64,000 nt of DNA from an uncultured Candidatus Saccharibacteria bacterium (GTDB lineage: Bacteria > Patescibacteriota > Minisyncoccia > Phycocordibacterales > GWA1-40-21), in the NCBI GenBank assembly GCA_964605355.1, contig CAZSCE010000001.1, forward strand, positions 103 through 64,102. The letters are read 5' to 3'. Positions within the stretch are counted from its first letter, which is position 1. Every line of letters begins with the position of its first letter. The translations under genes and the position numbers were made by a program. Positions 3,242 through 58,886 of the stretch are shown here, in pieces. The notes under the pieces were generated by a model, which searched no databases, was not told where the DNA came from, and was given only the letters and a program-made list of their open reading frames with translations.

Positions 3242-4051
3242 TTATTTATCTAAAATTATTTCCACAAAACTTAACTCAGAAATATTAACCGGGCTTTTAA
3301 AAAGAACAGTTTGGGTTGAATCTTTATCTTTAAAATTAATTTTCTCCACAATTCCAAAAACATTGGCGGTAATAGATGGAATCACAATCACATCCCCTTC
3401 CTTTACCTCTACCTCCTTGGGAATAGAAATATTAAAATTACCGCCCCCAATTCCCACGGCCTCAACACTAACAGAGCTATTACCTAATACCACGGATAAC
3501 TTTTGCCCGGGGGTAGAATAAAGGGTAATTTTTGACATATTTGGGTATACCTCAGTCACCTCACCAATATACACATTGGCGTTAGCCACTACCCTATCAC
3601 CCACTTTTATACCCTGATCTGAGCCAATATCCACCGTGAGCATATCATAAGGGGTTTGAGGTGGTTTGACCAAAACGGCGGCTAAAACAGTTTTTTTATT
3701 AATATCTTTACGACCGAGTAAATCTTTTAAATTTTCATTTTCTGCTTGTAGTGTTTCATTTATTGCTATCAAATTTCCGGCCATAAACAGCTTTTGCTCC
3801 ATCACCAGTTTTTCATTTATTAAAGTTTGCTTAAATTTAAAATATTGAAAAAAGTTGGAATTAGTAATTGAATTCTTGATTTGCCAAATTGGAGTAGCTA
3901 TATAAAAGAGTCCTTTGCGCACTGGGCTGGAGGCGATAATCAAAATTAATATTATTAAAATAATAATAACATTTATCACCCTTTTTCTAGCATTCCTCTT
4001 TCGATCTTCAAAATTACTGCTTTTTAGGAGGTAATTCATCTTCGTTTTCAA
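3242..4051 (-). CDS. mreC: rod shape-determining protein MreC
   Basis: N-terminal TM segment, a coiled-coil region (QAENENLKDLL) and a C-terminal beta-rich domain with GDRVVA...GIVEKI-type motifs. It overlaps the 3' end of mreB by 38 nt. Confidence 0.75.
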   Translation of the reverse strand: MKTKMNYLLKSSNFEDRKRNARKRVINVIIILIILILIIASSPVRKGLFYIATPIWQIKNSITNSNFFQYFKFKQTLINEKLVMEQKLFMAGNLIAINETLQAENENLKDLLGRKDINKKTVLAAVLVKPPQTPYDMLTVDIGSDQGIKVGDRVVANANVYIGEVTEVYPNMSKITLYSTPGQKLSVVLGNSSVSVEAVGIGGGNFNISIPKEVEVKEGDVIVIPSITANVFGIVEKINFKDKDSTQTVLFKSPVNISELSFVEIILDK

Positions 4052-5084
4052 TTAAAACTTCAATATAATCATTTAAATTTTCCAAAATAATACCGGTACC
4101 TCTGGCAATTGCTGTTAATGGATCACTGGCAATATATACCGGGATTTTTAATTCTTCATTCAAAAGTACATCTAAACCACGAATCAAGGCTCCACCACCC
4201 ACTAAATATATACCTCTCTGCATAATATCAGAAACAATTTCCGGCGGGGTGGTCTCCAAAACTTCTTTTACTGTTTCTACTAGGGTGGCAATACTTTGAG
4301 CCATAGCTTCACGCACATCACCATCAGTAATAATTACCTCTCTTGGTAAACCAGTGACCAAATCACGGCCTTTGACGGAAACTTCCATACTTTGCTCCAG
4401 CATGACAGAACCAACATTTATTTTAATCTCTTCAGCGGTTTTTTCACCAATTAATATTTTAAATTCGCTTCTAATGTAAGTAATAATATCTGTGTTTAAT
4501 CTATCACCAGCAATACGCAGATTTTTTGACTTTACAATTCCACCAAGGGAAATGACGGCGATATCAGAGGTGCCACCGCCAATATCAATCACCATACTGC
4601 CCACCGGACTTTTTATAGGTAAGCGAATACCAATAGCGCCGGCCATTGGTTCCTCCACAATATATACCTCACGGGCACCAGCATTCCTGGTGGCATCACG
4701 CACCGCCCTTATCTCCACGTTTGTTACGCCCGAGGGAACGCCCACCACTACACGCGGGCCTAATGGTTTTGGTGACAGTTCCTCAGCTTTTTTAACCAAA
4801 TAAGCAATCATTTCCTCCGTCACTTCAAAATCAGAAATCACACCATCCACGAGCGGGCGAACAGCTACAATGTGCGGCGGAGTTCTACCCAGCATGGCTT
4901 TGGCTTGTGACCCAACGGCCACCACGCGCCCAGTCTTCTGATTCAAGGCCACCACAGATGGCTCATTTACCACAATACCTTTTCCAGCTAAATATACTAT
5001 AGTATTAGCTGTTCCCAGATCAATTCCGATATCGTTGGAAAAGCGTCTGTATATTTTTGCTTTTAATTTTTCAAAAAATTCCAT
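4014..5084 (-). CDS. mreB: actin-like rod-shape protein MreB
   Basis: IGIDLGTANTIVY...NEPSVVA...VIDIGGGTSDIAVISLGGIV...LVGGGALIRGLD are the actin-fold phosphate 1, phosphate 2 and adenosine motifs typical of MreB. Confidence 0.9.
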   Translation of the reverse strand: MEFFEKLKAKIYRRFSNDIGIDLGTANTIVYLAGKGIVVNEPSVVALNQKTGRVVAVGSQAKAMLGRTPPHIVAVRPLVDGVISDFEVTEEMIAYLVKKAEELSPKPLGPRVVVGVPSGVTNVEIRAVRDATRNAGAREVYIVEEPMAGAIGIRLPIKSPVGSMVIDIGGGTSDIAVISLGGIVKSKNLRIAGDRLNTDIITYIRSEFKILIGEKTAEEIKINVGSVMLEQSMEVSVKGRDLVTGLPREVIITDGDVREAMAQSIATLVETVKEVLETTPPEIVSDIMQRGIYLVGGGALIRGLDVLLNEELKIPVYIASDPLTAIARGTGIILENLNDYIEVLIENEDELPPKKQ

Positions 5085-8912: not shown

Positions 8913-9926
8913 CTAACGTTTTGCTATGATTGATTTCTTATAGACGTCTAAATGTTCCAAAGCAATACCAGTGCCTTTGGCCACACAGTACATAGGATCT
9001 TTAGCAACGGCGGCTTTTACACCAGTTCGGCGGAAAACAAGTTCAGCTAAATTTCTTAATTGAGAAGAACCGCCTGTCATAATTATTCCTTGATCAATAA
9101 TATCAGCGGCCAATTCTGGTGGCGTTTCCTGCAACACATCTTTTATTGCTTTAATCATATCTCGTAATTCCTTGGAGATAGCTTTTACAATTTCATTAGT
9201 TTTTATTTCTGCAGTTCTTGGCAATCCGGACAAAAAGTCTCGGCCTTTTATGGTCATAGTTAATTCCTCTTCCATAGGCACAGCTGAACCAACAACAATT
9301 TTTATTTCCTCCGCGGTTTTATCTCCAATAGCCAAGTTAAAAGTTTTCTTTATATAATCAGCAATAGCATAATCAATTTTATTCCCCGCACACTTTACAG
9401 AAGTTGAAGCCACAATTCCCCCCAAGGAAATCACCGCCACATCCGTGGTCCCTCCACCAATATCCACCACCATATGACCCATGGGCTCCTGAATTGGAAT
9501 ACCGGCACCAATAGCGGCTAAAATAGGTTCTTTCACCACATATGCATTTTTAGCGCCGGCTTTCATGGCGGCTTCTATCACCGCGCGTCTCTCTGTGGAG
9601 GTAACACCGGCCGGTACGGACACCATCACTTCTGGTTTAAATAAATTCCATTTACCAAGTGCCTTATCAATAAAATAACGCAACATGGCCTCAGTCACAC
9701 GGTAATCAGCAATCACACCGTCCTTCATAGGCCGATAAGCAATAATACTGTCCGGAGTTTTACCAAGCATTTTCTTGGCCTCTACCCCCACCGCCAAAAT
9801 TTTATTATCCTGTTCAGATACGGCCACCACAGAAGGTTCAAACAAAACCACCCCTTTACCAGGTAAAAAAACCAGAGTATTAGCCGTTCCTAGGTCAATT
9901 CCAATTTTTTTGGTGAAAAATGACAT
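8913..9926 (-). CDS. second MreB/Mbl-like actin homologue
   Basis: IGIDLGTANTLVF...VVDIGGGTTDVAVISLGGIV...MTGGSSQLRNL are the same actin-fold motifs as in the mreB at 4014..5084. It is a paralog and is not linked to mreCD. Confidence 0.8.
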   Translation of the reverse strand: MSFFTKKIGIDLGTANTLVFLPGKGVVLFEPSVVAVSEQDNKILAVGVEAKKMLGKTPDSIIAYRPMKDGVIADYRVTEAMLRYFIDKALGKWNLFKPEVMVSVPAGVTSTERRAVIEAAMKAGAKNAYVVKEPILAAIGAGIPIQEPMGHMVVDIGGGTTDVAVISLGGIVASTSVKCAGNKIDYAIADYIKKTFNLAIGDKTAEEIKIVVGSAVPMEEELTMTIKGRDFLSGLPRTAEIKTNEIVKAISKELRDMIKAIKDVLQETPPELAADIIDQGIIMTGGSSQLRNLAELVFRRTGVKAAVAKDPMYCVAKGTGIALEHLDVYKKSIIAKR

Positions 9927-26992: not shown

Positions 26993-28723
26993 TTATTCTT
27001 GGGTTAAAGCCTGTCTATCCGGCGCTATATTATAATAATTGATTAAAAACTTTGTTATATCCATAAACGGCATTGTTAGGGTTTGGGAGGCAAAAGGAAC
27101 GCCTTGTGGCTCCACAGTATAAAGGAAAACTAGAAATCTGGGGTTATATGAGGGGAAATATCCAAAGAACGAGTGCAGCCATCTATCATCATAGTACCCT
27201 CCGCCCGGTTTGGCAATCTGGGCAGTACCAGTTTTAGCTGCTACAGAATAGTTTTCCATTTTTACCTTACCGTTCATCAAGGCCTTATCTACCACTACTG
27301 TAAGCATCCGTGATATTTCCTCTGAGGTTTCCTTTTTAATTACTTGCTTGGCTTCATTAATATAAGAAATATTATTAAATAATCCAGTGGAATAATTAAT
27401 TTTTTTAACAACATGAGGAATAATTAATTTACCACCATTAGCTAATATAGATAAGGCGCGCACGGTTTCTATTGGCGTTATAGAAATGCCCTGACCAAAG
27501 GAAGCAGTGGCATATTCAATATCTCTAGGGCTGTTTAAGTTTTCTAGTCTACCGTGATTTTCCCCTGGCAAATCAATTCCCGTTTCTTCAGCCAAACCAT
27601 AGTTACGCATATAATCCGCAAAATTATTTTTACCCATTTTTCTCACCACAAATGACACACCAAGGTTTAAGGATTGATTTAAGACTTCTTGCATGTTCAC
27701 CACACCATGCGGTTTCTTGTCATGATTATAAATAGTAGCAGTATCCAGAGTAAGTGAACCCGTATCATTATAGGTAGTTTCTGCCGTAACTGCTCCTGAA
27801 TCAATTCCAGCCGCCATAGTAAGAGGTTTAATAATAGAGCCCATTTCATACAAGCCTTCTACCAGGGGATCATTAAAAACGCTCAAGTCTTTTTCTTCGC
27901 CAAATTTATTTAAATTATAGGTGGGGTTAACAGCCATGGCATATATTTCACCGGTCATAGGATCAATAATAATTCCACCGCTAAGTTTTGACTTATACTG
28001 AGTAGATATTTCAGCCAGTTTCTTTTCTAAATAGCCCTGAGTGGCGGGCTCTATACTGGTGACTATATCCCCCTCTCTTTTTGAATTATCTGCAATAGTC
28101 TGCTTTATATTTGAAAATATCTCGGCAAAAAAGTTTACATATGACTTGTTACCATCCCTGGACAAAACGTCATTGTAATATTTCTCCAGTCCATATCTCC
28201 CCACCAAGTCATCTCCATCATAACCTACAAAACCTAATATATTGGCAGCGGTATTATCACCAGGATAATAACGCCAGCGCTCTTTTTCAATATTAACCCC
28301 AGCAATATTTAGGGCCTCAATTTTTTTCATTATTTCCTCTGGCACCTGATCGGCAATTTTTTGATAAACGCTTTCTTTCTGACTTACCTTTTGATAAAAA
28401 ATATCAATTTCTATTGGCAATACCGTGGAGAGTAAATTATAAGCATCCTCCGGATTAATAATTTTCTGCGGATTAATAGTAATCAAGTATCCGGTAGTTA
28501 ATGAAGCAGCACCAAGCAGTGTGCCGTCTTTATTTTGCATAAAAATACTTCCCCTATTAAAAATATTATGAGCTGGTGACACATACTGCCTATCCGCTTT
28601 ATCTACATATTCCTGACTATGAATTATTTGAACGTAGTAAAGCCTGACACATAAAACCAAAGCAAAGAACAAGAAACAGAAAAATATAAATCTTATTCTG
28701 TTCTTTTCTCCGTTAGCATTCAT
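26993..28723 (-). CDS. ftsI: penicillin-binding protein, FtsI-type transpeptidase
   Basis: N-terminal TM anchor, a dimerisation domain and a transpeptidase domain with SIIKP (SxxK) and KTGTA motifs. It lies downstream of ftsL. Confidence 0.85.
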   Translation of the reverse strand: MNANGEKNRIRFIFFCFLFFALVLCVRLYYVQIIHSQEYVDKADRQYVSPAHNIFNRGSIFMQNKDGTLLGAASLTTGYLITINPQKIINPEDAYNLLSTVLPIEIDIFYQKVSQKESVYQKIADQVPEEIMKKIEALNIAGVNIEKERWRYYPGDNTAANILGFVGYDGDDLVGRYGLEKYYNDVLSRDGNKSYVNFFAEIFSNIKQTIADNSKREGDIVTSIEPATQGYLEKKLAEISTQYKSKLSGGIIIDPMTGEIYAMAVNPTYNLNKFGEEKDLSVFNDPLVEGLYEMGSIIKPLTMAAGIDSGAVTAETTYNDTGSLTLDTATIYNHDKKPHGVVNMQEVLNQSLNLGVSFVVRKMGKNNFADYMRNYGLAEETGIDLPGENHGRLENLNSPRDIEYATASFGQGISITPIETVRALSILANGGKLIIPHVVKKINYSTGLFNNISYINEAKQVIKKETSEEISRMLTVVVDKALMNGKVKMENYSVAAKTGTAQIAKPGGGYYDDRWLHSFFGYFPSYNPRFLVFLYTVEPQGVPFASQTLTMPFMDITKFLINYYNIAPDRQALTQE

Positions 28724-29968: not shown

Positions 29969-30403
29969 TTATATGGCGCCCGCGCTACCCAGCTTTTCTG
30001 CTAAACTATCAGCTTCTTTTTCCACCACATTCTTGTAAGCTTTCCAGGCTTCTTCATTCCAGATTTCTACGCGATCCTGCACTCCAATCAGGGCTACTTT
30101 ACCTTTTAAATTTGCACGCTCGGTCAGGAAATCCGGGACCAGCATTCTACCCAGGGCATCCACCTCTACCTCTGTGGCGCTACCAAACATGTAGCGGTTA
30201 AAACTACGATTATCAGCCTTGAGCATATTGGCCTCAGATAATTTGTCAGAAATTTTTCCCCACTGCTTCATAGTGAAAATAAAAAGACAATTGTCCAGTC
30301 CAGAAGTAATCACAATTTTCTTTCCCATTTCTTTACGAAACTTCACCGGCAAGGAGAGCCTTTTTTTATCATCTATCGTGTGAATGTATTCGCCAATTAA
30401 CAT
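29969..30403 (-). CDS. mraZ: transcriptional regulator MraZ
   Basis: MLIGEYIHTIDDKKRLSLPVKFRKEM.. plus a second DxxxR-like repeat, giving the two-fold MraZ domain. 144 aa. Confidence 0.9.
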   Translation of the reverse strand: MLIGEYIHTIDDKKRLSLPVKFRKEMGKKIVITSGLDNCLFIFTMKQWGKISDKLSEANMLKADNRSFNRYMFGSATEVEVDALGRMLVPDFLTERANLKGKVALIGVQDRVEIWNEEAWKAYKNVVEKEADSLAEKLGSAGAI

Positions 30404-30477
30404 TTTATTTTTTAAGAATTAATTTATTTAATTTTTCAAATTTAGCTTTGTGTTTTCAGTGTTTTTTCTCTCATACC

Positions 30478-30554
30478 ACTTCATCCCACTTACTTACTAT
30501 TTTATAACACTTCATCCCACTCCACAAGCCAAATATCCACTTAGTTGTGGATAA
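30478..30554 (-). promoter_or_regulatory. mraZ upstream control region: two copies of CACTTCATCCCACT plus the inverted repeat TATCCAC-N6-GTGGATA
   Basis: Read on the mraZ strand the repeats are AGTGGGATGAAGTGG, i.e. GTGGG-N5-GTGG with 10-bp periodicity. This matches the direct-repeat architecture of MraZ operators. TGTGGATAA (30546..30554) equals the DnaA-box consensus. Confidence 0.55.
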
Positions 30555-30575: not shown

Positions 30576-30599
30576 AAAAAAGCCTTCTGTAAAAAGGCT
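30576..30599 (-). terminator. intrinsic terminator AGCCTT-loop-AAGGCT plus U-run (minus strand) behind the protease cassette
   Basis: 6-bp stem followed on the minus strand by TTTTTGTT. It separates the cassette from the mraZ promoter region. Confidence 0.55.
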
Positions 30600-30616
30600 C
30601 CTTTACTAGGGAATTA

Positions 30617-31015
30617 CTATCGATTCTTTAATTCAATTTCTTCCTTAAGTAGATCAAATTTAATGATAAAATTATCAAAGAACCCGTTCTGTCCAACAAG
30701 CCCAAAAGGCATAACCCTTCCTGACACATCAGGCATAAAACCGGCTTCTATTTTACATGGCCAGCCACCCACCTCAATTTCAATACTATGAAGATAGTAT
30801 GGTGATGATTTGCCCCCTACTCCCGTAACAGCCATCATCTTCCCTTTCATAATGTCTAATCCTAACGCCTCACCAATTTCTGCATCAAAAATACAAAGAT
30901 CTGCACCAGAATCTACTAATACTTCATAAACGATAGAGACGTCACCCTTTTTTAATTTTATTGGTATTACTGGGCGGAGAACGTTATTACCATAACGTTT
31001 ATAATCAAATTTCAC
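30617..31015 (-). CDS. retropepsin-like (clan AA) aspartic protease
   Basis: VLVDSGADLCIF is the hydrophobic-hydrophobic-D-S/T-G-A motif. The distal NFIIKFDLL is the retropepsin dimer-interface-type motif. 132 aa. Confidence 0.6.
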   Translation of the reverse strand: MKFDYKRYGNNVLRPVIPIKLKKGDVSIVYEVLVDSGADLCIFDAEIGEALGLDIMKGKMMAVTGVGGKSSPYYLHSIEIEVGGWPCKIEAGFMPDVSGRVMPFGLVGQNGFFDNFIIKFDLLKEEIELKNR

Positions 31016-34272: not shown

Positions 34273-35988
34273 TTATTTGAGATATTCCGGTTTATTGAGG
34301 GCAATATAATCCATCACTTGACGCATGACAGAGGTGGCACCCATGGTATTAGCCACCGGTCCTTTCTCCATAATAATTACAAAAGCATATTTAGGATTTT
34401 CATACGGAAAAAATCCGGACACCCAGGAATTTATAAACTGTTTATAAACTCCCAATTCAGCGGTACCCGTTTTAGCGGCCACGGAATATTTTGGGGAGTT
34501 TAGTCCCTTGACCACGCCGTAATCTTTTATCACGCCGTCCAGCATACCATCACGCACAATTTTTAAATAATCTTGATTTAAATTTAAATCCTGCACAGAG
34601 TCAGCGGATAATGGCTGATCTAGCAAAACCGTGGGTTCAATTAATTTACCACCATTAGCCAAGGCGGAAACAGCACGCAGGAGTTGAATGGGTGCCACTT
34701 GAAAACCATACTGACCAATAGAGGTGTGATAAGTGTTTCCCACGCGCCAATCCGGATCATCAGGAAAAGTGACCGCTTTCCAATCCGGAGTAGGTATTAC
34801 TCCCGCCGGTCCGGAAAAAAATGGTGAAGTCATAGGTTTTGAAAAACCAAACAGCTTCATATATTTATCAATATTTAAGATACCCAAACCTTTTTGATCT
34901 TCAAAACCACCGCCCACCTCATAAAAATAAACGTCAGAAGAAACCGCGAGGGCTTTTTTCATATCCACATAACCATGCGCCTTCCAGTCTTTAAAAATTG
35001 TTGGCTTGTCCGGATTATAAGGGTTTGGTAATGTCAGCGCCCCACTACTGAAAATATTAGTATAGGGATCAATTATATTTTCATTTTGCGCCGCGTAGGC
35101 CATATATGGCTTTATGGTGGATCCTGGTGTATATAAACCATCAATTATTCTATCCAAAAAAGGATTATTTTTATTACTCAGATAACTATTAATCATGGTT
35201 TTGTTTTGACCGTCAGTGAGAATTTGTGGGCTATATTCCGGATAACTGGTCAACGCTAATATCTGGCCATTAGTAATGTCCATAATCACCCCGGCGCCAC
35301 CGGAAAAGCCGGCATTAGTAGCCAGACTTTTTATCTCTTGGTACATTTTATTCTGAATTCCAGCCACCACAGAAAGCTTTAAGTCTTCACCGTCTACTGG
35401 TGTATGAATAATATTTTCAGATTGCGTTTCCCCCATAGCGTCCACTTCCACAATCCTCCTACCATTCTCACCGGACAAAATATCATTGTAATACTTTTCC
35501 ACTCCGTCTATACCACTAAAAACATCAGAATAATAAAAACCATATTTATCTTTTGATGGATATTTTAAATAACCAAGTAAATGAGCAAAACCATCCAAGG
35601 GAATATATTTACGAAGATCAAAGGCATTATCAATTGTATTTTCACTATTCCAAACCAGCTTTGTTCCCTCCCGGTCATATATCACGCCACGCTTGGCAAA
35701 AATAAGGGAGTTTCTCAGGCGGTTTTTTTCACTTTTAGCAAAATAACCATCACCATTACTAATTTGTAAATTACCAATTCTAAACATAAAAACAACAATG
35801 ATCACCGCCACCACACCAGCTAAAATAAAAATACTACGGCGAGAGATAGATTTCTCCAGCCGGCCTTCAAACTGATTAGTATCAAAGTTTGGTAAATTTT
35901 CCGAGTCAATAAAAATCTCATCCGGATCAATGGCTTTTTCTCGTCTGTCATATTTAATTCCCTGGCGCCTACGGCCAAATCTCATCAT
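34273..35988 (-). CDS. mrdA: penicillin-binding protein 2-type transpeptidase
   Basis: TM anchor and a transpeptidase domain with STIKP (SxxK) and KTGTAE. It is a second PBP, distinct from ftsI. Confidence 0.8.
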   Translation of the reverse strand: MMRFGRRRQGIKYDRREKAIDPDEIFIDSENLPNFDTNQFEGRLEKSISRRSIFILAGVVAVIIVVFMFRIGNLQISNGDGYFAKSEKNRLRNSLIFAKRGVIYDREGTKLVWNSENTIDNAFDLRKYIPLDGFAHLLGYLKYPSKDKYGFYYSDVFSGIDGVEKYYNDILSGENGRRIVEVDAMGETQSENIIHTPVDGEDLKLSVVAGIQNKMYQEIKSLATNAGFSGGAGVIMDITNGQILALTSYPEYSPQILTDGQNKTMINSYLSNKNNPFLDRIIDGLYTPGSTIKPYMAYAAQNENIIDPYTNIFSSGALTLPNPYNPDKPTIFKDWKAHGYVDMKKALAVSSDVYFYEVGGGFEDQKGLGILNIDKYMKLFGFSKPMTSPFFSGPAGVIPTPDWKAVTFPDDPDWRVGNTYHTSIGQYGFQVAPIQLLRAVSALANGGKLIEPTVLLDQPLSADSVQDLNLNQDYLKIVRDGMLDGVIKDYGVVKGLNSPKYSVAAKTGTAELGVYKQFINSWVSGFFPYENPKYAFVIIMEKGPVANTMGATSVMRQVMDYIALNKPEYLK

Positions 35989-46592: not shown

Positions 46593-47162
46593 TTAGTATT
46601 TACGAATTACCCCTTTGACAATAGCTGCTATTTGAAGTTCGTGTTCTGGGTAAATAGGGGAAAAATCCTTGTTTGCGGGCTCCAGATATATTTTACCTAG
46701 CCTGTTCCGGTAATATTTCATAGTCCAGCCACCATCCACAGAAGCAATAACAATCTCACCATCCCGGGGCTCTCTCTTGGTTTTCTCAGCAATCACCATA
46801 TCACCTTCGTGAATACCAGCATCAATCATGGAGTCACCTTTTACTTTTAATAAATAAGAGGAATCTTTATCCCTAATCAAATAATCATCAATATTTATGG
46901 TATCCAGATCAATTTCCTCTGCGGTGGTGGGAAAGCCGGCCTCTACCAAACCCAGAAGTGGCACCTCGCCAAGCAACTTATTGGGAATCAAATGCCCGCT
47001 ACTATCCTTATCTAGTACACCGTCATCAATCAATTTATGAATTACTTTGGCTACCGCATTTTTAGATTTGAAGCCAAGAAGCTTCATCATTTCCGTATAA
47101 ACCGGCATGCGCTTGTTAGCTTTGTAAAAGGAGATTATTTTGTTTTTATAATTATCCAGCAT
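46593..47162 (-). CDS. lexA: LexA repressor (S24 peptidase)
   Basis: An N-terminal winged HTH, the Ala-Gly cleavage site (VEAGF), VKGDSMIDAGIHEGD (catalytic Ser), and the catalytic Lys in GEIVIASVDGGWTMKYY. Confidence 0.9.
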   Translation of the reverse strand: MLDNYKNKIISFYKANKRMPVYTEMMKLLGFKSKNAVAKVIHKLIDDGVLDKDSSGHLIPNKLLGEVPLLGLVEAGFPTTAEEIDLDTINIDDYLIRDKDSSYLLKVKGDSMIDAGIHEGDMVIAEKTKREPRDGEIVIASVDGGWTMKYYRNRLGKIYLEPANKDFSPIYPEHELQIAAIVKGVIRKY

Positions 47163-47189: not shown

Positions 47190-47405
47190 TTATAGCAGAA
47201 ATGTAGCTACTACGTTTACTGTGCGCTGTAACCAGTTAGACTGAAAGCGAGACAGGCGGTGTAGGTCACTTAACCGGTTCAACAAAAAGCGGTGACGGAG
47301 GGCTTCACGCCTATAAGATACACCTTCAACAATTTTCACATCAATGATGTCATTAATCTTGGCTAACTCTGACTTAATCCTCTTTTCTAAAATAAATTTG
47401 CTCAT
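47190..47405 (-). CDS. hypothetical small protein co-transcribed upstream of lexA
   Basis: 71-aa ORF between the SOS promoter/REP element and lexA. No motif. Confidence 0.3.
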   Translation of the reverse strand: MSKFILEKRIKSELAKINDIIDVKIVEGVSYRREALRHRFLLNRLSDLHRLSRFQSNWLQRTVNVVATFLL

Positions 47406-47527: not shown

Positions 47528-47556
47528 AGTATAGGTGAACGCTCGTTCACCGTCAA
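47528..47556 (-). promoter_or_regulatory. SOS promoter: TTGACG - 17-nt spacer - TATACT with a LexA (Cheo-type) operator filling the spacer
   Basis: The minus strand reads TTGACGgtgaacgagcgttcaccTATACT. The 18-bp perfect palindrome GGTGAACGCTCGTTCACC (47534..47551) contains GAAC-N4-GTTC, the Gram-positive-type LexA box. Confidence 0.7.
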
Positions 47557-47646
47557 CCCTAAAACTGTGGATAACTTATTTCCGATACATTATCCCCCAC
47601 TTGTAAATAGTTGTGCCAAGCCAGCCTTTAATATATAGTTATATTT

Positions 47647-48396
47647 ATGCTACCAATAATTCTTTCATCCCTGGTTATAATGCTGGCTTCCTTGATTGGG
47701 GTGATTTCTGTTTGGAAAAATCTGGGGCAAATTATTGAGAGAAATTTACACTTTTTAGTCAGTTTCTCGGCTGGGGTCTTTCTTTATATTTCCTATGAAT
47801 TATGTCTGGAAACTATTCACGAGGCTCCCACAATTCAGAACGGTTTCTTATGGATTCTGGTTGGTATTTTTGGAGTCTGGTTAATTTTTAAATTACTCCC
47901 CACTTTTCACCACCATCATGACAATGAAACAGAGATTCACGTTCACTCTCAGATTGATGCCCGAAAAATATTGATTAGTGATGGTTTACACAATATTGGT
48001 GATGGTATTTTACTAGTCACATCTTTTACTGTCAGCTTGACCCTGGGTATGGTGGCCACCTTAAGTATTTTTGTTCATGAAATAATCCAAGAAATCTCAG
48101 AATTTTTTGTTCTTCGCGGGGCTGGTTATTCTGTGAGGAAGGCTCTTATTACCAGCTTTGCTATTTCCAGCACCATTTTGATTGGCTCTGTTGGTGGTTT
48201 ATTTTTATTAGACAATTTTAAAGTATTTGAAATCCCCCTCCTGGGCCTAGCCGCTGGTTCATTTTTAATGGTGGTTATCCAAGATCTCATCCCCCATTCT
48301 ATAAAAGTTTCCACCAGCCGCGCCCACATTATAAAACACCTTGCCTGGTTTTTAGCCGGCCTATTAATTATGATAGGGCTGAGTACTATTAGTTAG
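47647..48396 (+). CDS. zupT: ZIP-family metal transporter (ZupT-like)
   Basis: TM protein with a His-rich loop (HHHHDNETEIHVH) and the ZIP signatures LHNIGDGIL and VHEIIQEISEF. Confidence 0.75.
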   Translation: MLPIILSSLVIMLASLIGVISVWKNLGQIIERNLHFLVSFSAGVFLYISYELCLETIHEAPTIQNGFLWILVGIFGVWLIFKLLPTFHHHHDNETEIHVHSQIDARKILISDGLHNIGDGILLVTSFTVSLTLGMVATLSIFVHEIIQEISEFFVLRGAGYSVRKALITSFAISSTILIGSVGGLFLLDNFKVFEIPLLGLAAGSFLMVVIQDLIPHSIKVSTSRAHIIKHLAWFLAGLLIMIGLSTIS

Positions 48397-48436
48397 TTAA
48401 TAAAATTCACAGAATAATATGATTTTGGAGACGTAA

Positions 48437-48642
48437 AATTAAACGTAACCAGAATACAGTGCTAGAGGAGGCTTGGGAGCGCGACGGCGCGAGTTGAGAT
48501 TTGGGGAGGGACCCAAATGAAAGACCTTGAATGTTTTGTATTCAAAATGTGAAAGGTGTACTGTCCCTGTAAGGGACGAGGAATTTTTTAGCAAAAAAAT
48601 ATCCGTGCTCCGGTTAGTACTGTATTCTGGTTACGTTTAATT
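48437..48642. mobile_element. MITE-like element: 24-bp perfect terminal inverted repeats around a roughly 158-bp G+C-richer core
   Basis: AATTAAACGTAACCAGAATACAGT (48437..48460) is the exact reverse complement of 48619..48642. The core contains internal hairpins (GTCCC-tgtaa-GGGAC). The element touches the stop codon of the adjacent gene. Confidence 0.55.
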
Positions 48643-49299
48643 ACAGTAAAGGTACGACTCTGGGATTTCTTTTAGAATTTGGGCGGGCATTTCCGTTAAA
48701 GGTAAATCTTCATTTTGAAGTTTAATAATTATTTCCTTTTTAGATTCCCCAAAAGCAAAAGTGTAAGCCACAGTAATATTCTTTATTGTTTTTAAAGTGA
48801 GAGTAATGCGCCTAAACTTTCCACCATCATAACCACTAGCGGTAGCTTGATCTTTGACCCCCACGGTACCAGGCAAAACCCCGGCTGTATGCCCATCAGT
48901 GCCCAGACCAAACTGCCCTACCACCACCTCGGCCCAAGCTGTCAGATCCCGATATTTCTTGCCAAAATAGATTACTGTTTCCTTTAATTCCAAATCATTT
49001 AAAACCGGCACTGCCTGCACAGCGTCAAAATCAAAACCTGCCTCCCCCAGCTGCTGCCAATTTGAATCAGCGTGGCCCACGGGACCATGGCGCTCATCAG
49101 TGAGAGTCACCGCTAAAATATTTTTCAATTTACCGCCAAAATCTTTTTTTAATTTTTCTAAAACCTCCACTTCAATATTTATATTTGACCCACCAGAAAG
49201 TAACCACAACACATTTTTATTTCCCTTTAAATATTTCCCTATCCCCTCTACCAATATTTTCACCCCCTCCACCTCCCCTTTTATTTTTATAAATTCCAT
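48637..49299 (-). CDS. 6-phosphogluconolactonase-like (NagB/Pgl sugar-phosphate isomerase fold)
   Basis: GLGTDGHTAGVLPG matches the 6-phosphogluconolactonase G(M/L)GxDGHxASlFP box. 220 aa. Confidence 0.65.
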   Translation of the reverse strand: MEFIKIKGEVEGVKILVEGIGKYLKGNKNVLWLLSGGSNINIEVEVLEKLKKDFGGKLKNILAVTLTDERHGPVGHADSNWQQLGEAGFDFDAVQAVPVLNDLELKETVIYFGKKYRDLTAWAEVVVGQFGLGTDGHTAGVLPGTVGVKDQATASGYDGGKFRRITLTLKTIKNITVAYTFAFGESKKEIIIKLQNEDLPLTEMPAQILKEIPESYLYCN

Positions 49300-49315
49300 C
49301 TCACTATCTTAGCAC

Positions 49316-49360
49316 AAAAAAAGAGCGCTATCCCCACACCGGTGTGTGAAAATAGCGCTC
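49316..49360 (-). terminator. intrinsic terminator GAGCGCTAT-loop-ATAGCGCTC plus a 7-U tail (minus strand), the 3' boundary of the high-G+C island
   Basis: 9-bp stem with an internal CACACCGGTGTG palindrome and an A7 run on the plus strand. Confidence 0.7.
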
Positions 49361-49389
49361 CGTGTTGTCATAAAGAACTCCTCGTTAAC

Positions 49390-50571
49390 TCACAGAAGAG
49401 AAAGAATCAGCTCGCCCATTTCTGATGTATGCAAGAGGCTAGAACCTTTGCTGTAAACCAGTGTCAGGTTCGGATCACCACCAACATACATATCCCCCGT
49501 CCGATAGCCCTGCTTCAGAGCCTCACGAACTGCTTCCTCAATGGCTTTTGCGCCCTTCACCGCACCCAAATGCCGGAGCATCATGGCCGCCGTGAGAATG
49601 CGCCCCAGCGGATTAGTTTTGTTCTGCCCAGCCAATGTCGGAGCCGTCCCCGCACCGCTTTCAAACATCGCTGCGCCCGTGTCCGGATTGATGGCCGAAC
49701 TGCACATCATCCCCATACTGCCAAGTGCCGCCGCTGCTCCATCCGAGAGGATGTCCCCGTGCTCATTTCCACAAGCAATGACGCCGTGGAGTTTGGCCGG
49801 AGTGAACAACAGTGCATTCGCCGAGTCTACCAACTGGTGCTGGAGTGGCACGTCCGGGAATTCCGTCCTCCCGATTCTCGTGACAATCTTGCGCCAAAAG
49901 TCATACCGCGCCATCACGTTTGCCTTGTCGATGGAGATGAGAGGCAAGCCCACATCTCTCGCGTAAGTAAACGCCGCCCGGATATACTTCTCAATTGTTT
50001 CCCGGCGATAGTAGGCGATGTCAGAGACGAGCCTCTCGTCACCCGTCACACACTTCTTCAACCTGACGCCGATCCGTTCACAACCATCGCTTGGTATAAG
50101 TGACATCAGATCCTCGTTCCCGAAGTAGCTGTCCTCCAGGAGGAAGCGAATCCAAACCTGGGTGATGCCCTCGGCCGGAATTGTTTCCGGTCTGACGTTG
50201 GCCAAATGCGCCAGCTCCTTGTAGTAGATCATGGGGCGGAAGTTGAGCAACAACCCCATGTCTTTACGCAGTTTCAGCAAACACCTTGACTCCGGCTTCA
50301 TCTCCGGCTTCTCCTTGCCGATGGTGTCGTCCCACTTGGGATCACCCACGCCACCGAAGAAGATTGTGCCGATTTCAACCGCTCTTTTCAGAGACGCTTC
50401 CGGCCGTGTGTCGCCAAACTTTTCGTAGGCGCTCCACCCCATCGGAGTCTTTTCAAAAGCGATCTGGATGTTGTCCTTCTCAGCGGCCTTGATGGCAACA
50501 GCACAAGCCACCGCCATCATCTCCGGACCAGAGCCATCTCCAGTCACCAGAGCAACTGTTTTTTTTATCAT
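49390..50571 (-). CDS. 3-isopropylmalate/isocitrate/homoisocitrate dehydrogenase family enzyme
   Basis: LVTGDGSGPEMM (the GDGIGPEV box) and NEHGDILSDGAAAALGSMGMMCSSAI (the IMDH/IDH signature N-x-x-GD-I-x-SD). High G+C composition. Confidence 0.8.
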   Translation of the reverse strand: MIKKTVALVTGDGSGPEMMAVACAVAIKAAEKDNIQIAFEKTPMGWSAYEKFGDTRPEASLKRAVEIGTIFFGGVGDPKWDDTIGKEKPEMKPESRCLLKLRKDMGLLLNFRPMIYYKELAHLANVRPETIPAEGITQVWIRFLLEDSYFGNEDLMSLIPSDGCERIGVRLKKCVTGDERLVSDIAYYRRETIEKYIRAAFTYARDVGLPLISIDKANVMARYDFWRKIVTRIGRTEFPDVPLQHQLVDSANALLFTPAKLHGVIACGNEHGDILSDGAAAALGSMGMMCSSAINPDTGAAMFESGAGTAPTLAGQNKTNPLGRILTAAMMLRHLGAVKGAKAIEEAVREALKQGYRTGDMYVGGDPNLTLVYSKGSSLLHTSEMGELILSLL

Positions 50572-50645
50572 TTCGCGTTTCCTTTCTTGAGCTGTAACCC
50601 GTGGGCTGATTTTTCATGTCAACCCACGGGTTCATCTTGTTTCGC

Positions 50646-52637
50646 TTACTTCAGCAGTCCTGCTCCCTGCAGTTCCGCCGCCATCTTCACCATTACGCCG
50701 ACGCTTCCGCCGTTACGAATGAGGTCCTTCTGGTATACTGAATGATTGAAAGAAACCCCCTTCAAGCCAACACAGTTGCCAGAGCAACTAGTACTCGGGT
50801 CCATCTCCCAACCTATTGTGCCTTTCTCCCAATCAACACTAATCACTTCAGGCTTCTCGGCGAAGATAGAAGCGATTGTCTCTTTTGGAAGCGTAATGCA
50901 CAACAGTCCGTTGGCAAACATGTTGTTCTCAAAGATGCGAGCAAAGCTCGGTGCAATGACGCACCGAATACCCGCACCCTCGAGTGCCCAAGGCGCATGT
51001 TCACGAGATGAACCGCAACCAAAGTTCTCACCCGCTACCAGTATCTGTGACCCAAAGAGCTTGGGCCAGTCCGCCGACGAAATCGGCGCATCCTCGAGAC
51101 AGTGTTGGCCAAAAGCCTTCTTGTCTGTCTCGGTCAAATACTTGGCCGGAATGATCTGATCAGTATCTACGTTGGCCACCGGCAGGTAAAACACCTTACC
51201 GGAAAAATCCTTCGTCTCCCCCACTCCGAAGAGCTCGAGAAGCTGGCCGTAGTCCGGCCGTTGTGAAGGAACTTCTTTCCAACCCGTGATGCTGGTCAAT
51301 TTCGGAACCGACATCAAACTCACTTCGCGCGCGACCAATCGACAAGTATCTTCAGTTGCCTCTGATACCACTCCGTTGATAGCAGTTTTCGCCGCCGTCG
51401 CCGGTGATGCCAGATGCACCATACCATCCTTGCCCATGCGTCCCGGGAAATTGCGATTCGTCGTCGAAACGCAAACTTCTCCTGGAGCAATCACCCCACA
51501 ACTCATTCCCAGGCAGGCACCGCAAGTGGGACCGCTCACGAAACACCCCGCGTTAGCGAAGATTCCAAACAGCCCTTCCTCAAGTGCCATCTCCCAGATA
51601 TGCTGAGTGGCTGGAACTACAATGCAACGAATATTGTCTGCCACCGGGCGCCCCATCAAACGAAAGATTGTTGCGGCAATCCGCAAATCTTCCAACCGTC
51701 CGTTCGTGCAAGAGCCGATGTAGACCTGGTCAACTTTCTTGCCGGCCAAGTCACTCACCTTCTTCACACAACCTGGTGAATACTCGTCAGTGATGACAGG
51801 AACCATGTCCGAGGCATCAATCTCGATCACCTGATCGTAGACCGCATCCGGATCACTATTCCAGTAGTCGCCCATAAGATAATTCCCAACCTCGAGATTC
51901 TCATGAACTAGGCGCCGGTATCCCGACCCAAGATAATCCATGGTGGTTTGATCCACCATCATCATCCCGGACGTTGCACCTGCTTCCACCGCCATGTTGG
52001 TGATGGTCATCCGCGCTTCCATACTCATCTCATCAATGACTGGGCCACCAAATTCCAACACCGCGTTGGTGGCGCCCTTCACACCAATCTTGCTGATCAG
52101 CGTGAGGATGAGATCTTTGGCGTAAACATTCGCTGGCAATGCGCCGGTGAAGTTCACCCGAATGACTTTCTGAGGTGGACAGATCCAGAGACCGGTTATG
52201 ATGCCGTTCTCCACTTCTGTCGTACCGACACCCGCCGTCAAAGCACAAAAAGCGCCGTGCGTGCAGGTGTGGCTGTCACCCATGATTCCGATCTGGCCCG
52301 GTTTGATCCAGCCCTTCTCAGGAATGACGGCGTGACAAACGCCGTTGCGACCGACGTCCAAAAACTCGATCCCGTGTTCCCGGCTCCAGTTGCGGACAAT
52401 CTGACCTTGAAGGGCCGAAGCCGTATCCTTGGCCGGATTGACGTGATCAATCATGGTCTTGACCTTGTTCGGGTCAAAAACCACATCGCACCCGCGAATC
52501 TTGGCGTCCAGGATAGCGTTTGGTGTCGTAATCTCATGACCCCAAACCCAATCCAGCTGAAGAACCATCCGGCCATCCGGCAAGGTCTTCACACAATGTG
52601 TATCCACGATTTTCTGAAACGCTGTCTTTCCGTTCAT
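50646..52637 (-). CDS. fused aconitase-family dehydratase (LeuC-like large plus LeuD-like small subunit)
   Basis: GVCHAVIPEKG, IGSCTNGRLEDL and the C-terminal GENFGCGSSREHAPWAL. 663 aa, matching the sum of the two subunits. High G+C composition. Confidence 0.8.
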   Translation of the reverse strand: MNGKTAFQKIVDTHCVKTLPDGRMVLQLDWVWGHEITTPNAILDAKIRGCDVVFDPNKVKTMIDHVNPAKDTASALQGQIVRNWSREHGIEFLDVGRNGVCHAVIPEKGWIKPGQIGIMGDSHTCTHGAFCALTAGVGTTEVENGIITGLWICPPQKVIRVNFTGALPANVYAKDLILTLISKIGVKGATNAVLEFGGPVIDEMSMEARMTITNMAVEAGATSGMMMVDQTTMDYLGSGYRRLVHENLEVGNYLMGDYWNSDPDAVYDQVIEIDASDMVPVITDEYSPGCVKKVSDLAGKKVDQVYIGSCTNGRLEDLRIAATIFRLMGRPVADNIRCIVVPATQHIWEMALEEGLFGIFANAGCFVSGPTCGACLGMSCGVIAPGEVCVSTTNRNFPGRMGKDGMVHLASPATAAKTAINGVVSEATEDTCRLVAREVSLMSVPKLTSITGWKEVPSQRPDYGQLLELFGVGETKDFSGKVFYLPVANVDTDQIIPAKYLTETDKKAFGQHCLEDAPISSADWPKLFGSQILVAGENFGCGSSREHAPWALEGAGIRCVIAPSFARIFENNMFANGLLCITLPKETIASIFAEKPEVISVDWEKGTIGWEMDPSTSCSGNCVGLKGVSFNHSVYQKDLIRNGGSVGVMVKMAAELQGAGLLK

Positions 52638-52765
52638 CTTTCTACCCTATCCTTTCTTTTCTATTTTGGCCTATAAGGCCGATGTTAACGTACAAAAAAT
52701 CCGGGTAATCCCCAGATAAACAATCTGAATAAACATTAACACAAAATTTTGTAGTTAGTCAACAT

Positions 52766-52794
52766 AAAAGCCCGACTTGTGGTCGGGCTTTTAT
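52766..52794. terminator. intrinsic terminator AAAGCCCGAC-ttgtg-GTCGGGCTTT, the 5' boundary of the high-G+C island
   Basis: Perfect 10-bp stem with A-run and T-run flanks. Confidence 0.7.
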
Positions 52795-52801
52795 TATTAA
52801 A

Positions 52802-52936
52802 TTATTTCTTTCCTTTCTTTGGACCTTTCTTGGTGGCCTTGGCGGCGAGACGAACGAATTTGGCGGCCAAACGCTTCTTGGTTTTACGAGAACGGGAAGT
52901 TTTATTTTTAATATCTTGAGCTGCTCTTTTTGCCAT
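52802..52936 (-). CDS. 44-aa lysine-rich basic peptide (MAKRAAQDIKNKTSRSRKTKKRLAAKFVRLAAKATKKGPKKGKK), hypothetical
   Basis: Below the 60-aa track cutoff. It lies between the RGG/zinc-ribbon gene and the terminator, behind a 7-bp hairpin (GCAGAAG-attac-CTTCTGC). The RBS is weak. Confidence 0.3.
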   Translation of the reverse strand: MAKRAAQDIKNKTSRSRKTKKRLAAKFVRLAAKATKKGPKKGKK

Positions 52937-52998
52937 TTTTTTCTTTTTAAGCAGAAGATTACCTTCTGCGTGTTAATAATGAAACGATTATAGCTTAT

Positions 52999-53544
52999 TT
53001 ATTTCTTTTTGGAAACCTTCTTGGCAACTTTTTTAACTGGAGCGGCTTTGGCTACAGGGGTAGCTTTTACCACTTCCTTAACTTCTACTACTGGCTTATT
53101 TCCGGCGCTCATCTTTTCAATCACGCTGGTTAGTCTGTCAATCTTAACGTTCAAGACTTCTATTTGTTTCTTGATTTCCTCACCGCTGACTTTCTTTACA
53201 TCATTACCAAAATCAGTTCTTGGCGGAGTTTTGTAATCACCAAAAGATTTCTTTTGGAAACCACCACGATCACCCCCTCTATCACCCCCGCCCATTTCCT
53301 TTTTGCCACCAAAACAAGCACTACAGTAAACTGGCTTACCAGCAGTTGGTAAAAAAGGCACCTCACAAGGCTTTTTACATTCATCACAAATCACTTTGTG
53401 CATGGTCACTGGGCCACGGTCAGAACGGAAACCACCACCTCTGTTACCACCACCAAAAGGACCACCGCGGGCCTTGAAACCTCCACCGTGACCACCATGG
53501 CCACCACCAAATCTACTTCCGCCACCTTGTCTAAATTCTCCCAT
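52999..53544 (-). CDS. Gly/Arg-rich (RGG) protein with a CxxC-x17-CxxC zinc ribbon and a Lys/Ala-rich C-terminal tail
   Basis: CDECKKPCEVPFLPTAGKPVYCSAC has exact C-x2-C-x17-C-x2-C spacing. It is flanked by GGGHGGHGGGF/RGG repeats and ends AKAAPVKKVAKKVSKKK. Confidence 0.6.
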   Translation of the reverse strand: MGEFRQGGGSRFGGGHGGHGGGFKARGGPFGGGNRGGGFRSDRGPVTMHKVICDECKKPCEVPFLPTAGKPVYCSACFGGKKEMGGGDRGGDRGGFQKKSFGDYKTPPRTDFGNDVKKVSGEEIKKQIEVLNVKIDRLTSVIEKMSAGNKPVVEVKEVVKATPVAKAAPVKKVAKKVSKKK

Positions 53545-53611
53545 TTTATTTTGACCCTTGCGGGTGATTAGTTAATAATTAAATGAAGGTGTAGTATACA
53601 CTATTTTCAGT

Positions 53612-53650
53612 AAAAACGCAAGGCGTCATCAGTTTCTGATGACGCCTTTG
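53612..53650 (-). terminator. intrinsic terminator GGCGTCATCAG-tttc-CTGATGACGCC plus U-run (minus strand)
   Basis: Near-perfect 11-bp stem with an A5 run on the plus strand. It follows the 53668..53877 ORF. Confidence 0.7.
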
Positions 53651-53667
53651 CTAAATCCTCCCTAACT

Positions 53668-53877
53668 TTACTTATTGTTTTTGCCCTTTCTTTCTGCCAG
53701 ATATATCTCCAGAGCCCGAATCAGCTCCTGGCTATACCGGTAGATTCCAGGATTATACCCAAAAAAGAAATCTCCCTGCAGTTCACGAAGTATGGACACC
53801 AGCTTGGATATCCTCTTCTTTGACATCCTTACCCGGTTTGAATGTACAGGTATTGGTTTTATCAAAAGCTTACCCAC
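53668..53877 (-). CDS. hypothetical small basic protein (69 aa)
   Basis: ORF only. A strong terminator lies behind it. Confidence 0.3.
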   Translation of the reverse strand: MGKLLIKPIPVHSNRVRMSKKRISKLVSILRELQGDFFFGYNPGIYRYSQELIRALEIYLAERKGKNNK

Positions 53878-53967
53878 AGTTATTCCTCCTTCATTACTGA
53901 GTTAATACAAAAAACCAAATCTGTTGCAAGATTAGCAAAAAAACCATAGAAGTCAAACAAAATCTTT

Positions 53968-54843
53968 TTAATTTAATTTAAAATAATCAAAAAGGGCTTT
54001 AATACCCGCTAAATTTTTCTCCCACTCCACGGTCTCATGCGTAGAGAGCTCTACTGTGATGGTGGGAATATTTATAGAGGCCAGCCAATCACCAGCATCA
54101 CCAGTGATAACATAGCTGTTAAACGTCCTGGCCTTGGCATATCCCGCCGCTGTGGAATATATATCCATAATATTATTTGTTTCAGCTAAAACCCCCGCCT
54201 GACATTCCGAAGCATAAATAGTATTTGACATGCTATGCCAAAAAATTACAGCTTTGGGTTTGTTATTTAAAACAAAATCCCGAATGGACCTAGCCTCTGG
54301 CTCGGAAAAAACTGTTTTCCCCGCGCTCACAATATTTGTTTTCCAAGTACTAGTAGCTTGCCATTTACAATCAAAATTTCTATTCAAGTCTACTTTGTTT
54401 CCATTAAACCGACCGGTACCATTTGGCAAATCCGTCTTTACATCCGCCAAAACAAACCGCCCTTCTTTACCGGTCACCTGATATAAACCATCGGGATTAG
54501 CAGAGGGAATAACGGTCACCGCCATATTTTCCGGAATCATTTCTGGATTAGCTTTTAAATAATCCATAAATTTATAAGCGAGCATCACACTGTTCCACTC
54601 ATAACCACCATGAATACCCCCCACAAAAAGTAACGGCTCTTTACCCTGTCCATAAGTATAGGCTTCTATTTTACGCCCCTGGGTAGAAGTGCCAACAATT
54701 TCATATTTTGGCCCCGTCTCCACTACTGGCGCTGTAATAATTATTGGCGCTGACTTATAGAAGAATGAATAATAAATCACTCCACCCAAACCAAATAGAA
54801 TAACTATAAAAATAATTATTTTCTTCAGAGAATATTCCCGCAT
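53968..54843 (-). CDS. M14-family zinc carboxypeptidase (murein-peptide/gamma-D-Glu-DAP peptidase-like), membrane-anchored, paralog 2
   Basis: GGIHGGYEWNS (zinc His/Glu), DLNRNFDC (the substrate-binding NR of the NRNW box), FWHSMSN (third zinc His) and TVELSTHE (catalytic Glu). Confidence 0.7.
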   Translation of the reverse strand: MREYSLKKIIIFIVILFGLGGVIYYSFFYKSAPIIITAPVVETGPKYEIVGTSTQGRKIEAYTYGQGKEPLLFVGGIHGGYEWNSVMLAYKFMDYLKANPEMIPENMAVTVIPSANPDGLYQVTGKEGRFVLADVKTDLPNGTGRFNGNKVDLNRNFDCKWQATSTWKTNIVSAGKTVFSEPEARSIRDFVLNNKPKAVIFWHSMSNTIYASECQAGVLAETNNIMDIYSTAAGYAKARTFNSYVITGDAGDWLASINIPTITVELSTHETVEWEKNLAGIKALFDYFKLN

Positions 54844-58407: not shown

Positions 58408-58446
58408 AAAAAAGGGCCGGCGCAGAAACTGGAAGCGCGCCGGCCC
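58408..58446 (-). terminator. strong intrinsic terminator GGGCCGGCGCGC-loop-GCGCCGGCCC plus a 6-U tail (minus strand), immediately upstream of the dnaX promoter
   Basis: 10-12-bp G+C stem with an A6 run on the plus strand. It ends the roughly 300-nt unassigned transcript region. Confidence 0.75.
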
Positions 58447-58727
58447 TCATACTCACCTACACGGATCCTTGTTGTGACTCACAACATTTTCCTTTCCCTT
58501 TGGGGGTTAAGGACTCTAATCTAGGATTTTGCTCCTCACTAGTGCTCGGGACTAGCTACATAGTGATTTGCGACATCTACGGCGTTTACCCCGCAGACCT
58601 AGATTGGATCACCTCCTTTCTTGTGTTATTGTCCCGCCCGCGAAAATTGTGAACTGTTCTGCTGTACAGTGTATTCCTATTTTTTAAAAATGAAAAGGGT
58701 AAATTAAAATAACCTGTGGATAAAGGT

Positions 58728-58856
58728 AAAAAGAAGCGGGCAGTTCCAGAAGGAACTGCCCGCGATCTAACCAATATGGTTTTCTGATGGACCTTCCATG
58801 GTCAACCCCCTTTCATAGCTGTGTACTGTTACTGCCACTCCTGTGGCGACCTTAGA
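58728..58856 (-). ncRNA. candidate small RNA of about 130 nt: consensus promoter, three hairpins, intrinsic terminator
   Basis: Promoter TTGACA (58885..58890, overlapping the dus stop), a 16-nt spacer, then TATACT (58863..58868). The terminator GCGGGCAGTTCC-agaa-GGAACTGCCCGC plus U-run lies at 58726..58763. Internal hairpins GCCAC-agga-GTGGC and GACC-atggaa-GGTC are present, as is a 10-codon micro-ORF with an AAGGGGG SD. Confidence 0.4.
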
Positions 58857-58886
58857 TATACAAGTATAGCATACCCACTAAAATTG

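Follow-up and report, generated by a model that had tools for sequence, protein, structure and literature searches.

How replication is coupled to division in bacteria is an open question, and the DNA that precedes the division genes described here raises it at the level of a single promoter: which signals does this promoter hold, and which proteins would read them? In the window, i.e. the whole stretch of 64,000 nucleotides that was analysed, mraZ is gene 1 of a cluster in which it is followed by rsmH (TIGR00006), an ftsL-sized open reading frame, a class B PBP gene and a Mur ligase gene (murE-like), all on the minus strand. The encoded MraZ scores 131.7 bits against the MraZ model TIGR00242, above the cutoff of 98.35. 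Its homologues bear PF02381, and those that carry names come from Candidatus Paceibacterota / Minisyncoccia, i.e. from CPR/Patescibacteria. The protein contains two DxxxR motifs, DDKKR at residues 11-15 and DALGR at residues 82-86, and has kept K13, R15 and R86, by which MraZ contacts DNA in a cryo-EM structure (PMC12957436). A gap of 213 nt, which holds the control region, separates mraZ from an aspartyl-protease-like gene (30617..31015, minus strand; match to Pfam Asp_protease_2), and the hairpin that follows this gene marks the upstream limit of the region.

29969..30403, minus strand: mraZ coding sequence, 144 aa (open reading frame list, NCBIfam TIGR00242, motifs)
30576..30604, minus strand: terminator-like hairpin with T-run, belonging to the upstream aspartyl-protease-like gene (inverted repeat in the sequence)

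The rod-shape and division gene set of the window is fairly complete for a CPR genome: two MreB paralogues and MreC (3242..5084 and 8913..9926) are present, and there are two class B PBP genes (26993..28723 and 34273..35988).

We consider it likely that the segment 30476..30554, read on the minus strand, is the control region of the dcw operon, in which a predicted promoter of the sigma-70 type is interleaved with five putative MraZ boxes and a putative DnaA box lies upstream. On the mraZ strand, the control region reads GTTATCCACAactaaGTGGATAtttggcTTGTGGaGTGGGatgaaGTGTtaTAAAATagtaagtaaGTGGGatgaaGTGGtat, and its elements are the following, from upstream to downstream.

30546..30554, minus strand: DnaA-type box TTATCCACA (as an 11-mer, GTTATCCACAA, 30544..30554); it precedes the -35 by 18 nt and is exact in 34 of the 42 loci
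30534..30553, no strand assigned: inverted repeat TATCCAC-N6-GTGGATA; not conserved as a unit
30537..30540, minus strand: MraZ-type box 0, GTGG of GTGGATA, 20 nt upstream of box 1; GTGG at -51 in 11 loci
30522..30527, minus strand: predicted -35 hexamer TTGTGG, 17 nt from the -10; TTG columns conserved at -38..-36
30517..30520, minus strand: MraZ box 1, GTGG, within the -35/-10 spacer; GTG[GT] at -31 in 25 of 42 loci
30508..30521, minus strand: direct-repeat copy A, AGTGGGATGAAGTG, carrying boxes 1 and 2 (repeat search, simulations)
30507..30510, minus strand: MraZ box 2, GTGT, 2 nt upstream of the -10; GTG[GT] at -21/-20 in 40 of 42 loci
30499..30504, minus strand: predicted -10 hexamer TAAAAT; conserved column, aligned with TATAAT of relatives
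30486..30489, minus strand: MraZ box 3, GTGG of GTGGGA, 9 nt downstream of the -10; alignment anchor
30477..30490, minus strand: direct-repeat copy B, AGTGGGATGAAGTG, carrying boxes 3 and 4 (repeat search, simulations)
30476..30479, minus strand: MraZ box 4, GTGG, at +10 relative to box 3; GTG[GT] in 41 of 42 loci

The most apparent feature of this region is a repeated 14-mer. On the plus strand, CACTTCATCCCACT occurs at 30477..30490 and at 30508..30521; an earlier note on this DNA had rightly reported the repeat and had placed it one base too high, at 30478..30491 and 30509..30522. The mraZ strand reads AGTGGGATGAAGTG(G/T), and the two copies can be extended to 18 nt (30473..30490 and 30504..30521), which are 94% identical and 31 nt apart. 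Exact direct repeats of 14 nt lying at most 60 nt apart are found twice in the window, as against none in 30 first-order Markov simulations. The only other such pair, GGAATAATTAATTT at 27389..27430 with its copies 28 nt apart, lies within a PBP gene.

The GTG(G/T) cores of the five boxes start at 30540, 30520, 30510, 30489 and 30479, i.e. at offsets of 0, 20, 30, 51 and 61, and thus fall on a single helical face, the last four being separated by 10, 21 and 10 nt from start to start. The published MraZ box is GTG(G/T), repeated with 6-nt spacers and a 10-bp period (PMC12957436), and boxes with exactly this spacing are found in the window. Repeats of this kind are documented in several bacteria. 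In B. subtilis, three GTGG[A/T]G repeats (MBRs) with 4-nt spacers are needed for repression (bioRxiv 10.1101/2022.02.09.479790), and in E. coli and B. cenocepacia the -10 is followed by the MraZ repeats, which in B. cenocepacia also cover the start site. Reading E. coli Pmra from the genome gave TTGACA...TAAACT...GTGGGaaattGTGGGgcaaaGTGGG, with an operator of three GTGGG just downstream of the -10. The window array resembles the operators of E. coli, B. subtilis, B. cenocepacia and M. genitalium in its direct GTG(G/T) boxes, in its 10-bp period and in overlapping what is predicted to be the start of the mraZ operon, and the repressor DxxxR motifs together with K13, R15 and R86 are common to the window MraZ and those characterised systems. 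It differs from them in its layout. Published operators have three contiguous boxes, or four in M. genitalium and B. cenocepacia, whereas in the window no more than two boxes follow one another directly, the lattice being interrupted at the -35 and at the -10. The boxes of the window share one lattice in a 1+2+2 arrangement, in which the slots left free are taken by the -35 and -10 hexamers, while published arrays are contiguous; work on M. genitalium indicates that MraZ binding tolerates longer spacers (PMC12957436).

To see which of these positions are kept, relatives were compared, as the earlier note had suggested. Scanning one genome per species yielded 80 mraZ loci, and the alignment set comprised 42 upstream regions of the Paceibacteria type, namely 41 loci (given L numbers below) and the window, with MraZ identities of 48-91%. 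The alignment was ungapped and anchored on the promoter-proximal box pair, with box 3 at position 0. This pair was located in 42 of the 43 loci examined, L018 not being anchorable. GTG[GT] peaked at -51 (11 loci), -31 (25 loci, or 27 with -30), -21/-20 (40 loci), 0 (42 loci) and +10 (41 loci), with nearly none between these positions; the value of 42/42 for box 3 arises by construction since this box served as the anchor. Box 1 (-31) was found chiefly in the closer relatives. The consensus shared by the 42 loci is TtG..t.gTgggat.aaGTG.T.TA.AATat.aa..AAGTGGGAaaAAGTGGgAaa, and its box-3 part, AAGTGGGAaaAAGTGGgAaa, has an information content above 1 bit. [quoted passage not shown] Chloroflexi loci also showed a 1+2 split of the boxes about the -10, and gammaproteobacterial loci had four contiguous boxes; since the Chloroflexi loci are split too, splitting is a variant found widely and is not new to this genome.

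Because the box positions are conserved, the MraZ model and contact residues are present and the published box definition is matched, we read the array as a predicted MraZ operator, split 1+2+2, as is to be expected at an mraZ gene. We also looked for further MraZ targets. GTGG-N6-GTGG has 9 matches in the window compared with 0.88 expected from shuffles; GTGG itself occurs 632 times and spacings other than N6 yield similar counts. The remaining matches are all coding, and additional targets in the window were therefore rejected.

The predicted mraZ promoter is of the sigma-70 type, with a predicted transcription start at ~30492. In the ungapped, box-3-anchored alignment, the relatives have conserved both a TTG, at -38..-36, and a hexamer resembling TATAAT, at -15..-10, at a distance of 17 nt, so that the predicted -35 TTG and -10 stand out as conserved amid the boxes. 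A generic consensus promoter scan of the window did not include this promoter in its output. Boxes 1 and 2 occupy the -35/-10 spacer, box 3 sits at or just past the predicted start, and boxes 3 and 4 together span from this start to ~+17. The predicted 5' leader (30404..30492, minus strand) is ~86 nt long and very A/T-rich, no obvious Shine-Dalgarno being seen in it ahead of the mraZ ATG (aaaaaataaaATG), and leader lengths vary from ~25 to 270 nt across relatives.

Upstream of this promoter, positions 30546..30554 match the DnaA-box 9-mer consensus (TTATCCACA / TTATNCACA; TGTGGATAA on the other strand). The earlier note had already pointed out this match at the correct position, as well as the other two exact copies of the 9-mer at 47566..47574 and 58715..58723. 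These three copies (starting at 30546, 47566 and 58715) compare with 0.82 expected, and 5 of 100 shuffles reached three. As to their location, the non-coding DNA, 13% of the window, holds 3/3 exact 9-mers versus 1/26 one-mismatch copies. Among the mraZ loci, the exact 9-mer was present in 34 of the 42, and four more (L012, L013, L043, L045) had a one-mismatch version at the same place. It was missing from the promoter in L003, L008, L009 and L016, which suggests that the box is dispensable in some lineages; L018, outside the anchored set, carries CTATCCACA. This conservation is found in intergenic DNA that around the box is unalignable among relatives. Between the box and the -35, 22 loci have 8-10 nt and 12 others, among them the window, have 18-19 nt, which defines two registers 9-10 nt apart, and the box is inverted in place in L023, L034 and L042. 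Altogether, 40 exact copies of the 9-mer were counted in 283 kb (window and loci), of which ~34 are the mraZ site and ~6 lie elsewhere.

The relatives' consensus extends to an 11-mer, GTTATCCACAG, which has the same sequence as two boxes at E. coli oriC, presumably the high-affinity boxes R1 and R4; copies of the 9-mer inside genes do not have the G flanks. The E. coli boxes sit in an origin cluster, whereas those of the window are single and at promoters. No sign of an origin was observed in the window, which lacks dnaA and shows no switch in skew other than what gene strand explains. A motif scan found no dnaA in the window or in 160 loci. A walk from a dnaX locus with parB at its end, extended via a RelA homologue by 10 kb in two genomes, met parB and miaA-like genes and no dnaA. 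A literature search for DnaA box or TTATCCACA together with CPR/Patescibacteria found nothing relevant.

The second exact copy of the 9-mer belongs to another promoter, that of lexA, for which the relevant features are listed below.

47566..47574, minus strand: second DnaA-type box, GTTATCCACAG, 9 nt upstream of the lexA -35; conserved at relatives' lexA promoters
47528..47556, minus strand: lexA promoter, TTGACG, 17-nt spacer, TATACT (sequence, conservation)
47535..47550, minus strand: palindrome GTGAACGAGCGTTCAC, GAAC-N4-GTTC, in the spacer; sole GAAC-N4-GTTC of the window
46593..47162, minus strand: lexA, 189 aa (NCBIfam TIGR00498; Pfam Peptidase_S24)

On the minus strand, 47574..47528 reads GTTATCCACAG, 9 nt, TTGACG, GTGAACGAGCGTTCACC and TATACT, and we take the GAAC-N4-GTTC palindrome to be a LexA/Cheo-type SOS box. 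The lexA product scores 118.6 bits against the LexA model TIGR00498 (cutoff 110.95). An open reading frame of 71 aa with no family match (47190..47405, minus strand) sits between the lexA promoter and lexA, and from this location one would expect it to share the lexA transcript. In a metagenome scan, 80 related lexA loci were obtained, with 46 distinct promoters of the same signature, and at these 46 promoters the DnaA-type box was found at the same place, exact in 33 and with one mismatch in 7. The one-mismatch variants include TTATTCACA and TTATACACA, changed at position 5 in a way permitted by TTATNCACA. The gap between box and -35 is 1 nt at 3 promoters, 8-11 nt at 29 and 19 nt at one, with a uniform orientation. 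GTGG arrays are absent from the lexA promoters. Two promoters that are both predicted to be autoregulated, those of mraZ and lexA, thus have in common an upstream box at spacings about one helical turn apart.

Additional intergenic copies were observed in relatives: GTTATCCACAG before a radical-SAM gene, 9 nt away from a TTGTGT-17-TACAAT promoter (L162, 75..85), GTTATCCACAG with both G flanks upstream of dprA (L167, 5485..5495), and a second copy of the box together with an upstream promoter half (L027, 723). These boxes are candidate additional members of the same regulon.

Whether DnaA is the protein that reads the TTATCCACA box deserves consideration, since the box might be functional and be read instead by MraZ, as an inverted GTGGATAA-type box, or by another CPR transcription factor whose specificity is similar. 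This we regard as unlikely, though less so than the other alternatives. In both registers, the CCAC core of the box lies on the 10-bp lattice of MraZ, and GTGGATAA-type sequences occur in phase within the MraZ arrays of other CPR lineages (L036, L046-L054). In such CPR-type lineages, TGTGGATAA(C/G) is located within or just past the MraZ array, around or downstream of the promoter (L036, 2473; L046, 2412; L047, 2415; L049, 2451; L050, 75; L053 and L054, 2458), and in L049-L054 it stands exactly in phase as the third box, DnaA-type and MraZ box being one sequence there. However, the nine positions are invariant at 34 mraZ and at 33 lexA sites, where most of the G flanks are kept as well, while true MraZ boxes vary freely past GTGG (GTGGGA, GTGGAA, GTGGTA, GTGTTA). 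Moreover, the box opposes the direct MraZ repeats in its orientation, it is carried by lexA promoters that have no GTGG arrays, its variants are tolerated at position 5 as for DnaA, and the 11-mer GTTATCCACAG is the same as that of the two E. coli oriC boxes. We thus keep DnaA as the preferred reader of the upstream box.

The box is also one half of the inverted repeat TATCCAC-N6-GTGGATA, for which the earlier note had assumed a promoter-proximal position. The inverted repeat does exist; it lies upstream of the -35, since the promoter hexamers are within the repeat array, and it does not behave as a conserved unit. If it served a dimeric regulator as palindromic operator, or acted as a hairpin or terminator, this would account for its perfect 7-bp stem with a 6-nt loop, for a predicted RNA hairpin energy of -8.8 kcal/mol and for its being flagged as terminator-like on both strands. 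Such a functional unit appears very improbable when the arms are followed in relatives. The left arm is the core of the DnaA-type box and the right arm is the GTGG of box 0, and they are conserved independently: the right arm is intact (7/7) in L004 and L006 only, 34 loci keep the left arm without the right one, most box-bearing loci have no right arm, and L003 and L009, both devoid of the DnaA-type box, have kept the GTGG at -51. No compensatory changes were seen, the T-run that follows the inverted repeat is poor, and the upstream gene already has its own terminator-like hairpin at 30576..30604. In addition, perfect 7-nt inverted repeats are frequent in the window (87, compared with ~40 in simulations), and because they are so common TATCCAC-N6-GTGGATA is not significant alone. 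On account of this background and of the poor conservation, the hairpin, terminator and palindromic operator readings were rejected; the palindrome results from two neighbouring motifs, each of which contains GTGG/CCAC. That the repeats and the box arose by chance, or by a local duplication of recent date, and have no role in regulation is hardly credible: the 94% identity of the 18-mers, taken alone, is compatible with a recent duplication and three exact 9-mers per 64 kb are only mildly above expectation, but the positions are kept across relatives in otherwise unalignable intergenic DNA, the 30 simulations yielded no 14-nt repeat and the exact boxes are all intergenic.

The third exact copy of the 9-mer had a different outcome.

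58715..58723, minus strand: third exact TTATCCACA copy, with the dus terminator on one side and a non-coding stretch upstream of dnaX on the other; function not supported

No box was present in the dus-dnaX gap of five relatives out of five (L162, L164, L167, L168 and L169), and the copy at 58715 was thus rejected as a conserved site. The gap itself (58410..58892, minus strand) has a strong promoter-like TTGACA-17-TATACT followed by a ~110-nt stretch terminated by a hairpin, and then a structured stretch of ~280 nt that starts near AAGGAGGTGATCC, presumably a complement of the 16S rRNA 3' end, and has a terminator at its end. The relatives have 240-960 nt of non-coding DNA at this place. For the stretch upstream of dnaX, Rfam returned only a sub-threshold match to the Caulobacter sRNA CC2171 (24.5 bits versus 75), and for the whole window at gathering score two tRNAs and nothing else. 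Both stretches are probably unannotated small RNAs. The GC content of the window rises to 0.49 at ~48000..54000, as against ~0.38 elsewhere; this segment, which carries an aconitase gene (50646..52637) and an isocitrate/isopropylmalate dehydrogenase gene (49390..50571), may have been horizontally acquired.

How would the mraZ control region work? An MraZ oligomer assembled on the in-phase boxes would exclude RNA polymerase from the promoter and lead to negative autoregulation, each subunit reading one box via K13, R15 and R86. Autorepression by occlusion through an MraZ oligomer has been described for M. genitalium and B. subtilis (PMC12957436; bioRxiv 10.1101/2022.02.09.479790). DnaA bound to the upstream box, on a fixed helical face beside the promoter, would make the operon responsive to the state of the replication initiator. 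As the promoter holds MraZ sites together with a conserved DnaA-type box, the division genes probably respond to the replication initiator as well as to their own repressor, and both inputs put forward by the earlier note, autoregulation and a possible replication-linked one, survive as sequence-based readings after the comparison with relatives. The presence of the same box at a lexA promoter that carries a LexA-type box means that the same factor would feed division and SOS control.

The direction of the DnaA effect may be read from the geometry of the promoters. We favour stimulation or anti-repression, since the gap classes of ~1, 9-10 and 18-19 nt resemble those of upstream activators and the orientation is strongly preferred. 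Repression is possible by analogy with B. subtilis yllB/ftsL: according to Goranov et al. 2005, as reported in PMC2533591 and PMC8203912, DnaA of B. subtilis binds the yllB(mraZ)/ftsL promoter and regulates it negatively. There, as predicted here from the box, the replication initiator acts at the promoter of the same operon; the B. subtilis link comes from ChIP and expression data and is repressive, whereas here one exactly conserved box is found at a fixed helical phase. In Caulobacter, ftsZ is activated by DnaA. Co-regulation by DnaA and LexA also has a precedent in E. coli uvrB and recN (Wurihan et al. 2018, as reported in PMC8203912). The lexA promoter of the window is similar to these in having a DnaA-type box beside a LexA-type box at one promoter, and it differs from them in that the target is lexA itself and the LexA-type box is GAAC-N4-GTTC within the -35/-10 spacer.

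Our broader proposal, which we put forward tentatively and at slightly less than even confidence, is that the DnaA of Paceibacteria serves as a cell-cycle transcription factor, a single high-affinity box, kept on one helical face at 1, 9-10 or 18-19 nt from the -35, feeding replication status to two operons with separate autoregulation, dcw (MraZ) and lexA (LexA). The kind of regulation is known, and what appears modestly new, as judged from sequence comparison, is that in a CPR class a DnaA-type box is conserved at both of these promoters, dcw and lexA. With the predicted operator described here, the MraZ operator architecture is extended to CPR, in a form whose boxes can straddle the promoter hexamers. 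A fragment of ~90 bp would contain the whole circuit, i.e. the DnaA-type box, the five MraZ boxes and the promoter; for M. genitalium, a system of this kind has been assayed in vitro or with E. coli reporters. In those CPR lineages in which DnaA and MraZ would share a box, they could compete directly for it. The DnaA-type box at the dcw and lexA promoters appears to be under strong purifying selection across a class of uncultured bacteria with reduced genomes, and it thus offers a compact and testable example of replication-division coupling. If the proposal is true, replication in these bacteria would be hard-wired to both division and repair through a conserved link.
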